A stretch of DNA of 64,000 bases. Origin: an uncultured Clostridium sp. (GTDB lineage Bacteria; Bacillota; Clostridia; TANB77; CAG-508). Both the position numbers and the translations under genes were made by a program. Below, in pieces: positions 60,094 to 61,477 of this stretch (position 1 is the stretch's first letter; every line of letters begins with the position of its first letter). Below the pieces are notes generated by a model. It was not told the origin of the DNA and did no database searches. It was given only the letters and a program-made list of their open reading frames with translations. The stretch is from assembly GCA_945949485.1 (NCBI GenBank), contig CAMFER010000004.1:1535-65534 (forward strand). The letters run 5' to 3'.

Positions 60094-61477
60094 TTACTCT
60101 GTGATTTGTCCATACTCTAACGAAGTTCCTGAATAACTATCTGGCAATGTCGTCGTCCAAGGTTCCTCGCTACCACTTGAAGAAATGGACAAATCATCCA
60201 CTGTGACTCCAGACTGTAGATAAACTACAGGGCGCACAGCCAACCAAAACGCAAGGGAATAGCCGGTCGAAAAGAACAAGCCATAGCCGGTGCCAGCATT
60301 GCCTCCACTGACAGCCCCCGGACAAAAATGGCAAACATCAGAGCGGTCCACGTAGACACCAGAAGACGCAAGCCAGTAGGATTTTCCGTTTGACCCACTT
60401 TCTGTTCCCTTAAATAATACATCATATAGTTTACTAGATTGATCAACTATACTAGAATCTGTGTACATATACATAAATGCTGTCCCATCTACACTATCTC
60501 CTGATTTCTTATTTGTTAAAGAACTATATTTTGATGGATATTTTGCTTTCAAGTAATTTTCTGGTGCATAGTCATTTGTTTTATATGTATAACTTTGTCC
60601 AAAGAACCCAAGATATGCTGTTAATGCAGTTTTTGATTCATCTGCAGTTTTATATAATTTTCCACCTGCTACTGTTTTATCTAATGTTAAGCCTAATGCT
60701 GTATTTATGTCTTCTATTCTCATACTCTTTGTATCAGTAGCATATCTTCCCGCATAAATTGCACATACTTTATCTAATATATTATTAGACACTAATTCAT
60801 CGTTAGTATTATACCAACCTTCTGCTTTGTCTAGATATAGATATGGATCTTTTTTCCAATCTTCTGTTGCTGATGAATCCATTTCTTTTTTAATAGGGCT
60901 TCCTGTGGTTATTACTAATTGTGTTTCATCTTTATTTAATCCTAAAACTCTCCATGTTGTAGTTGTATTAACTTTATAAGTTTGCGTTCCACCATCAAAT
61001 CCTGTTTCTTCTGTTGTTAAATTGGCTGTCGCATTTGTATTGTTTAGTGTTGAATTGTAATTTGTTATATAGTCTCCTACATTTATTTCTCTATCTTTAA
61101 ATGCTTGTACCAATGTTTTTGCATTTGATATAGAACCAAGAACACTAAAATCTATTGTTATTCCACCTATTGTTATTACATCATTTTCTTCTAGTGTTGC
61201 AACTTCGCTATCAGTTAGTTTTCCATCTCTATGTAGTTGTGCAATTACTTCTGCTCTTGTTTGTTTCGTTCCTCCAATATAATCTGCTCCAGTATTATTT
61301 GCTGCAGCCAAGGTTACGGTTTCCTGTACTTCTCCTCCTCTTGTTGCATCTTTTGCTTGTACTGCTTTATTTAAAATTCCGTTATTTCCAGATAACATTG
61401 ATATTGATATACCAGCTAATATCAATAATACAATAATGTTATAATCATATTTATTATTCCCATTTTTTGTTATCCAT
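60094..61477 (-). CDS. Prepilin-leader-type surface protein with a C-terminal lectin-like (WL.S...VRP.V.L) domain; the 5' end is out of frame
   Basis: ..NIIVLLILAGISISMLSGNNGILNKA is the hydrophobic pilin-like segment. ATGGATAACAAAAAATGGG at 61459-61477 is offset by one base in an A6 run. The C-terminus is ..YWLASSG..VRPVVYL. Confidence 0.6.
60220..60378 (-). other. Adenine-depleted, GC-rich codon island (DGR variable-region-like) in the C-terminal domain of the 60094-61477 gene
   Basis: Of 53 codons (YWLASSGVYVDRSDVCHFCPGAVSGGNAGTGYGLFFSTGYSLAFWLAVRPVVY), only about 15 of 159 coding-strand bases are A (my count). GCG, CGC, CCG, GGC, GTG and GTC codons are used here and are rare elsewhere. 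Confidence 0.45.

Follow-up and report, generated by a model that had tools for sequence, protein, structure and literature searches.

How does a GC-rich, adenine-poor patch of codons come to lie at the 3' end of a pilin-like gene in an AT-rich genome, with no retroelement beside it? The patch occupies 60220-60378, on the minus strand, of a 64,000-nucleotide stretch from an uncultured Clostridium sp. (contig CAMFER010000004.1), which is hereafter called the window and whose positions are used throughout. An earlier note, made from the letters alone, had proposed that the patch is the variable region (VR) of a diversity-generating retroelement (DGR). In an intact element of this kind, a reverse transcriptase (RT) makes cDNA from a template repeat (TR), with misincorporation at the adenines of the template, and this cDNA then replaces the VR at the 3' end of a target gene. 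The present analysis upholds the proposal and adds a history to it. Very probably, the patch is a VR (VR1) of a DGR target which lost its own cassette by deletion, had its VR rewritten afterwards, and is decaying in the window lineage.

The composition of the patch is distinctive. Translation of the minus strand over 60220-60378 gives exactly YWLASSGVYVDRSDVCHFCPGAVSGGNAGTGYGLFFSTGYSLAFWLAVRPVVY, and an exact recount of the 159 coding-strand nucleotides (15 A, 58 T, 48 G, 38 C) agrees with the figure of about 15 A given at the outset. Against a background of 10,916 codons from the 23 long open reading frames (ORFs) of the window, the A fraction is 0.094 vs 0.433, the GC content at third codon positions (GC3) is 0.528 vs 0.128, and 39 of the 53 codons are free of A as compared with 17.8%. 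The patch had also been said to use codons nearly absent from the genome, and this holds as well: GCG, CGC, CCG, GGC, and GTC, occurring at 1.7, 0.2, 0.6, 2.1, and 2.6 per 1000 background codons, respectively, are 10-190 times enriched. On the plus strand, the T count per 159 nt over the whole 64 kb has a mean of 68.3 and a standard deviation of 10.7, and it falls to 25 or fewer at two places only, 60154-60405 (minimum 14) and 61613-61786 (minimum 24). The T depletion of the patch lies about 5 standard deviations off the mean. The abrupt return of the flanks to normal codon usage is real on the 5' side, where the 53 adjoining codons have an A fraction of 0.40 and a GC3 of 0.17, and absent on the 3' side, where the last 41 codons of the gene stay intermediate (A 0.285, GC 0.447, GC3 0.366). 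The only other GC-rich islands were considered as additional VRs or TRs and rejected, 23531-23790 being a cluster of three tRNA genes and 32534-32617 a tRNA-Leu gene.

The identity of the patch is carried by its match to template repeats in related genomes, the loci of which are designated by L numbers. VR1, at 60222-60378 (minus strand), is homologous without a gap over 157 nt to the TRs of L001 and L009. Compared with the TR of L001 (TR_L001, at L001 2355-2512, between the bAvd and RVT_1 genes), it has 18 mismatches at TR adenines and 3 at other sites. Cognate TR/VR pairs in L001, L009, L010, and L011 have 17-24 differences at TR adenines and 0-1 elsewhere, which is the textbook pattern of adenine-specific mutagenic retrohoming. 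TR_L001 translates as a stop codon followed by WLASSGVNMNGSDYCNFGPGAVNEGNAGTGNDLFNSNGNSNAKWLAVRPVD. Nearly all of its 30 adenines fall within AAC/AAT-type codons, and its scaffold codons are adenine-free. A TR of the VR1 type encodes WLASSGV-N-M-N-GSDYC-N-FGPGAV-N-E-G-N-AG... and is recognisable as a GGTGTCAACATGAACGGCTC-type sequence. Owing to the adenine-free scaffold of the TR in a genome of 27% GC, codons made of G, C, and T only are forced, and a GC-rich, A-poor patch results; mutagenesis would contribute to it by replacing about 60% of the remaining A's. VR1 thus appears to have been written from a TR essentially identical to that of L001 and L009.

Variation among homologues follows the same design. 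Aligned over 35 homologues of 82-94% identity, the protein hardly varies outside the island, and inside it the consensus YWLASSGVxxxGSDxCxFGPGAVxGGxAGxGxxLFxSxGxSxAxWLAVRPVVY varies at discrete codons. Fixed scaffold residues alternating with free positions are the pattern expected of a DGR variable region. The proposal that the island is such a region is therefore supported from three sides, namely the adenine-biased near-copy beside an RT gene described next, the variation at discrete codons, and the agreement of the island boundaries with TR homology, no higher-GC donor being needed.

A near-copy with mismatches at A sites beside an RT gene, for which the earlier note had advised a search, was found in related genomes, directly downstream of the orthologous gene. 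In L001, the orthologue (homologue P0003) is followed by a 145-aa MutS-domain-I protein (MutS-like, MSL), a 118-aa bAvd, the TR, a 315-aa RT, and a second MutS-domain-I gene on the other strand; a 79-codon ORF in this locus is really the template repeat. The family matches are clear (bAvd PF22296, E 1e-11; NCBIfam DivGenRetAVD NF033474, E 4e-13; RVT_1, E 2e-14), and the translated RT carries the motifs IGNMTSQ and YQDD. Avd is present in L001, L009, L010, L011, and L021. A scan of the GTDB representative genomes for a 20-mer common to VR and TR returned five loci, all in metagenome-assembled genomes (MAGs) of uncultured Clostridia or Clostridiales. Three of the five have a cassette, with the match at both VR and TR in L009 and L010 and at the TR only in L011, and the other two, L008 and L012, have an orphan copy only. 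The MSL is intact, at 145-151 aa, in L001 and L021, as a small MutS-domain-I protein encoded together with avd. By this gene content, the related cassettes are MSL-type DGRs, Architecture D of Wu et al. (2017).

Some further observations concern these cassettes. L001 (1577-2014 and 3683-4081), L010, and L021 (11199-11654 and 13287-13694) each have an MSL gene ahead of Avd and another, inverted, behind the RT, and the two are only about 26% identical to each other. Another decay state is seen at 11494-11984 of L004/L005, where the target is followed by a 103-aa MSL, Avd fragments (residues 1-20 and 51-97), and ribosomal protein L28, with neither TR nor RT. Additionally, a phage origin was considered and rejected, as exact 20-21-mers specific to the TR types of VR1 and VR2 (a second VR, introduced below) are absent from IMG/VR viral contigs.

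The window itself holds no complete DGR. The absence of RT, Avd, and TR first reported for it was confirmed: VR 60-mers slid along both strands of the 64 kb matched at best 32 of 60 positions, and tblastn with the L001 proteins gave E > 1 for RT and Avd, an MSL stump being the only match. This remnant lies at 59723-59995 on the minus strand, with its homologous part at 59743-59995 (Pfam MutS_I, E 1.9e-8). The intact 145-aa MSL of L001 aligns to it by tblastn with 95% identity over residues 7-85, at 59741-59977, and to nothing beyond, so that the window keeps MSL residues 1 to about 85 only. DNA homology to L001 and L009 ends at 59743, within the MSL and 480 nt from VR1, and this end defines a deletion junction, J1. 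Beyond J1 follow a promoter-like site, a full-length T-box leader, a small ORF, pheS, and pheT. The deletion removed the 3' half of the MSL together with Avd, TR, and RT, joining MSL codon ~85 to the promoter region of pheST. An identical MSL-to-pheST junction occurs in seven contigs (the window, L002, L015, L024, L025, L026, and L027), and the PheS proteins of L024-L027 are identical to that of the window. Since J1 is common to every sampled contig of the species, the deletion is judged to be old and fixed rather than an assembly artefact. The retroelement thus seems to have been deleted from this locus and is seen in related genomes only.

Behind the shared junction, VR1 differs from strain to strain. 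Five alleles were found at the J1 locus (window = L013 = L014; L002 = L025; L024; L026; L015). Any two of them differ at 19-25 positions, and TR adenines, which make up only 20% of positions, account for 17-21 of the differences (binomial p for 21/25 = 1e-11); the hypervariability at particular codons that had been suggested as a check is thereby met with among alleles of one locus. Relative to TR_L001, each of the other alleles has one private non-A change, and window VR1 has three. Because the alleles differ mostly at TR adenines behind a common J1, the VR appears to have been rewritten after the deletion. Two routes are candidates for this rewriting, namely retrohoming in trans from a cassette elsewhere, on the chromosome or on a mobile element, and gene conversion from an intact locus. 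Flanking single-nucleotide polymorphisms (SNPs) have no power to separate the two routes, as the VR is bordered in all loci by near-identical sequence, over 600 nt upstream and 226 nt downstream.

The copy in the window has suffered a second loss. Target gene 1 (60094-61425, minus strand) is a 443-codon ORF from a TTG, a 5'-truncated copy of a type-IV-pilin-like protein of 464-473 aa. Gene callers start it at an internal Met, giving 434 aa. A database search with it gave 760 matches, and the best 120 of them are 59-94% identical and mostly 430-473 aa long. Full-length homologues begin MKN..KGITLIALVITIIVLLILAG, and homology of the window to them starts at 61444, inside the hydrophobic helix (..IIVLLILAGISIS). 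Upstream, the window has no leader, no ATG, and no obvious ribosome-binding site for this gene, so that the prepilin motif and complete hydrophobic alpha-helix of the family are missing from this copy. The earlier note had missed this loss of the pilin N-terminus. In other strains of the species (L024, L026), the gene is intact at 466 aa.

The breakpoint involves the second VR type of this region (VR2, described below). At junction J2 (61437-61463, minus strand), the first 27 nt of the MSL of a VR2-type cassette are fused to codon ~17 of target gene 1. Aligned with both L021 and L001, the window sequence is of L021 type through ATGGGAATAATAAATATGATTA and then of L001 target type, with the switch at a short TTATAAC-like microhomology. 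A further deletion in the window lineage fused the remains of the VR2-type cassette to the target gene and removed the pilin N-terminus. Moreover, window VR1 is identical in L013 and L014, that is, in three assemblies, and its three non-A changes relative to TR_L001 (G to C, T to G, and G to T) alter the encoded scaffold: R replaces the scaffold G of GSD, V stands where the TR encodes a Tyr ahead of the scaffold Cys, and C replaces the G of FGPG. Identity in three assemblies together with three private scaffold substitutions makes it seem that rewriting of this copy has stopped. Most likely, the window copy is a decaying pseudogene whose VR1 is no longer rewritten, the present inactivity being what these two features mildly suggest.

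Features in cis at the end of VR1 are well preserved. An inverted repeat, CTGTAG-TTTAT-CTACAG (60214-60230, minus strand), stands exactly where TR/VR homology ends, and its second arm is absent from the TR copy. The DNA of 60170-60260 folds with -10.8 kcal/mol (z = -2.7 vs shuffles), and the repeat is a candidate target-recognition hairpin. After it comes a post-VR segment of 226 nt (59996-60221, minus strand; GC 0.447), comprising the last 41 target codons and an intergenic region with a hairpin of 10-bp stem at 60014-60043. This segment is 99-100% identical to L001, L009, L024, and L026. Against these loci, identity is lower in the gene body (92-96%; L001, L024, L026) and in the MSL remnant (91-97%). 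Such conservation would fit a cis-acting role in target recognition, or frequent conversion.

Several observations weigh against the account of deletion, later rewriting, and present decay. The allele change of L015 looks like a recombination patch rather than a clean homing event: after only 3 SNPs against the window in 1.8 kb upstream, a patch running from 60618 to 60129 holds two 3-nt indels as well as SNPs outside the VR. The two orphan-only MAGs, L008 and L012, contain the shared 20-mer once per genome and no TR, which argues against a resident cassette acting in trans. MAGs often lose mobile or repeated DNA, and this weakens the single-copy argument. The cognate TR and RT of the present genome are not seen in the part of it that was covered, 64 kb of a 65.8-kb contig. 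The three non-A differences of VR1 could reflect a slightly different TR and not drift. Finally, L013 and L014 may be one strain of one study, and the invariance of VR1 among them is then weak evidence of inactivity.

Four other explanations have to be weighed. The first holds that the orphan VR1 is still an active remote target, rewritten in trans in the window lineage too, by an MSL-Avd-TR-RT cassette that matches it and lies elsewhere in the genome, perhaps as part of an integrative mobilizable element. Such a state would be served by the intact VR 3' end, hairpin, and post-VR segment, all 99-100% identical to cassette-bearing loci, and by the alleles behind J1, which differ at TR adenines and outside them depart from TR_L001 by 1-3 changes each. 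Remote DGR targets are known from the literature (PMC5758913), and an integrase and a Mob_Pre relaxase belong to the element that holds the VR2-type cassette of L021. However, the window copy has neither a pilin N-terminus nor an evident start signal, its three private non-A changes would be erased by a fresh homing event, and no TR was found in the two orphan-only MAGs. Furthermore, VR1 is identical in three assemblies, and target gene 2 encodes one and the same protein, with an unchanged VR2, in 8 contigs of at least 6 samples. Continued activity in the window lineage is possible and, on this balance, doubtful.

The second explanation traces all VR diversity at the locus to exchange with intact DGR loci, those of other strains or of paralogues, by homologous recombination or gene conversion, with no retrohoming there since the deletion. 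Apart from the L015 patch, with its non-VR SNPs and indels, it can call on the MSL stump of L024, a mosaic whose first ~110 nt are of L001 type and the rest of orphan type, and on L014, which carries 20 substitutions relative to the window within 174 nt (60962-61135), in the N-terminal half of the target gene, on a contig otherwise identical over 4 kb. The L014 cluster appears to be a recombination patch as well, and the C-terminal ~600 nt of the gene are homogenised across loci. To judge from these patches in L015, L024, and L014, recombination certainly takes place at the locus. As a complete explanation, however, it needs a separate donor for every allele, and the alleles of the window, L002, L024, and L026 show no flanking donor SNPs beside the VR, though the flanks are too conserved to reveal conversion tracts. 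We give it a modest chance of being the whole story.

Far less can be said for the third explanation, in which the missing cassette really follows the gene and was lost through collapse or mis-joining at the VR/TR repeat. Such repeats often break or mis-join short-read assemblies, and several related contigs do end near these genes. J1 lies inside the MSL and not at the repeat, however, and is the same in seven contigs of independent assemblies, running on into pheS and pheT, which makes an artefact highly improbable. A patch brought in from a higher-GC donor by horizontal transfer or recombination, or a plain Gly/Ala/Val/Trp-rich domain, would account for a GC-rich stretch rich in G, A, V, and S in an AT-rich genome and for little else, and has a negligible chance of being right, as synonymous positions are shifted too (GC3 0.53 vs 0.13), variation is specific to A sites, cassettes stand in the orthologous loci, and the island boundaries coincide with TR homology, so that no such donor is needed. 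The reading retained is therefore that of a DGR target deprived of its cassette, rewritten afterwards, and decaying in the window lineage.

VR1 is not alone in the window, which the earlier note had overlooked: a second orphan VR lies 1.3 kb away. VR2 (61619-61770, minus strand; A fraction 0.157, GC3 0.45) has a different scaffold (WLGSRSVxAxDxxAxFxVRxV...) and belongs to target gene 2 (61528-62418, minus strand; 296 aa), a paralogue of target gene 1 with about 25% identity. Its homologues have 377-415 aa and a pilin N-terminus, and are hypervariable at discrete codons of YWLGSRSVxAxDxxAxFxVRxVDSGDVxxWxLFxAxTxGxxxExxxAC. The possibility that VR1 and VR2 are copies of one TR was rejected, as they are unrelated in DNA sequence and correspond to different TR types. 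The cognate-type TR of VR2 (TR2) is found in L021 at 11989-12155, between bAvd and RT, and is recognisable as a AATGATAACAATGCGAACTTC-type sequence. Its own cognate VR departs from it at 20 adenines; for window VR2 the count is 26 adenines, plus about 3 further core sites. In L021, a 91%-identical full-length target gene 2 is followed by MSL, bAvd, TR2, RT, and a second MSL.

Target gene 2 is truncated in the window as well. It is missing the first ~90-100 residues, pilin N-terminus included, and at the DNA level it matches L021 only from 62383 on, corresponding to codon ~93 of the full-length gene. The sequence upstream (62384-62640) is unrelated and provides an AGGAGG, an ATG, and a near-consensus promoter, TTGAAA-17-TATAAT, at 62500-62472. 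A version of the DGR target that has neither pilin part nor signal may thus be expressed. Taken together, the two genes represent orphaned targets, side by side and each with its cassette deleted, of a known kind of element, the MSL-type DGR; the pilin-like family of gut Clostridia to which they belong is uncharacterised. A third pilin-like gene follows at 62641-63855 (minus strand; 404 aa), with an intact N-terminus, a weak signal of a BspA-type leucine-rich repeat, but without a VR. A repeat may lie ahead of this gene, to judge from several metagenome contigs that break off 100-300 nt upstream of it.

The cassette of L021 is further remarkable for its surroundings. At 3802-15636 (ena:ERZ28575104 scaffold_908), the VR2-type cassette and its target stand amid a tyrosine integrase, Sigma70_r4/HTH_16 (Tn916-like) regulators, and a Mob_Pre relaxase. 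This gene content suggests that the cassette is carried on an integrative mobilizable element.

What fold displays the variable residues is a separate matter. The N-terminus of the family resembles pilins. Full-length homologues give a weak Pfam N_methyl match (E 0.002-0.04, below the cut-off), and a family profile searched against PDB matched pilin N-termini only, those of Geopilin, MshA, and PilA, with E 0.002-0.4 (Geopilin/MshA 0.002-0.08). One homologue, in a Clostridiales MAG, is annotated by NCBI as 'type II secretion system protein'. For the C-terminal 340 residues, a Pfam/NCBIfam scan found no family, and specifically no FGE-sulfatase or DUF1566 match. AlphaFold2 (AF2) models are confident (pLDDT 88.5 for the whole protein; pLDDT 92.1 and pTM 0.91 for residues 101-443). 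Foldseek returned no neighbour in PDB for either model (best E 0.78-1.2, TM at most 0.14) or in BFVD (best E 1.4), with TM at most 0.16 over both databases, a null that is no proof of a new fold, as Foldseek can miss very divergent ones. A terminal lectin-like domain, as first supposed, was hence not confirmed: two AF2 models, three Foldseek searches, the PDB profile search, and an hhalign comparison all failed to support a C-type lectin (CLec) fold of the VR domain. The domain may have a very divergent CLec fold or something else.

A relative of the target deserves mention here. At 4284-5456 of L003 lies a gene for a 390-aa protein with the same pilin-like N-terminus and a C-terminal FGE-sulfatase domain (E 1.7e-7). 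The pilin-like family thus also includes members with the classical DGR-type lectin fold. When the target family was compared with this paralogue by hhalign, the N-terminus only was aligned.

The neighbouring pheST side of J1 has features of its own. The promoter-like site found by promoter scan (59654-59626, minus strand) lies about 90 nt past J1, and the T-box leader (59382-59612, minus strand) matches Rfam RF00230 with 100.2 bits and E 5.9e-22. A terminator-like hairpin is present at 59365-59400. Between the leader and pheS, 58894-59316 holds an ORF of 140-158 aa of unknown family, and the T-box appears to control this extra small gene ahead of pheST. Additionally, the segment between J1 and the pheST promoter (59650-59700) consists of A-rich repeated AAAAATC/AAAATATG units, the length of which varies among the window, L002, L015, L024, and L026.

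The locus is instructive in several respects. Where a surface-protein gene of an AT-rich genome has adenine-free, GC-rich codons at its 3' end, this compositional signal alone can pinpoint VRs that have no retroelement with them; standard RT-anchored DGR finders would miss both VRs of the window. Moreover, the locus records the life history of a DGR target, from cassette deletion through turnover of VR alleles behind a fixed junction to later decay of the gene, and it offers a natural test of whether DGRs of gut Clostridia rewrite orphaned targets in trans. Proteins of the target family, in which the type-IV-pilin-like N-terminus precedes a large C-terminal domain without recognisable relatives, are abundant in gut metagenomes, as the 760 matches indicate. 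Two leads emerge, namely the trans rewriting of orphaned VRs, possibly by cassettes on mobile elements, and the fold that displays the VR. C-type lectin and immunoglobulin (Ig) are the fold classes known for DGR targets. A speculative and rather unlikely idea would combine the two leads: MSL-Avd-TR-RT-MSL cassettes would travel on integrative mobilizable elements in gut Clostridia and rewrite chromosomal orphan pilin-like VRs, whose VR domain of ~340 residues would belong to neither the C-type-lectin nor the Ig class. If this is true, a horizontally mobile mutator diversifies resident surface-protein genes.

Three groups of known systems may be compared with the locus. The first comprises the CLec-fold DGR proteins (Bordetella phage Mtd and Treponema TvpA; FGE-sulfatase Pfam family), with which target gene 1 shares a VR in the last ~50 residues and an invariant scaffold (W, G, C, F, VRP) among Asn-coded variable sites. 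Unlike them, it has no Pfam match in its C-terminal 340 residues and no Foldseek neighbour in PDB or BFVD. The second is formed by remote targets. The avd-TR-brt components are known to work in trans, and VR1 resembles a remote target in having no nearby RT or TR and in matching a distant TR with A-to-N differences. The DGR of Treponema denticola has seven non-adjacent targets (Wu et al., 2017, PMC5758913). VR1 differs from remote targets in that the orphan seems to have arisen by loss of its own cassette, of which the MSL stump is left, and in that the matching TR was found only in other genomes. The third group is that of the MSL-containing DGRs, which constitute 'Architecture D', for instance the DGR of Legionella pneumophila (Wu et al., 2017, NAR, PMC5758913); Msl is also reported from the pilus-diversifying Bfr, Bth, and Bun DGRs of Bacteroides (bioRxiv 10.1101/2024.11.15.621889). 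The related intact loci agree with these in the order target, MSL, Avd, TR, and RT, in adenine-specific mutagenesis, in a TR with ~30 adenines, and in a VR at the C-terminus of a surface-appendage protein. They depart from them in that the cassettes (L001, L010, L021) have two MSL genes, one on each side. The host here is a low-GC uncultured Clostridia bacterium, and its window keeps only a truncated MSL. The diversified protein is also of another kind: a type V pilus tip protein in Bacteroides and a lipoprotein in Legionella, it is here a type-IV-pilin-like protein.

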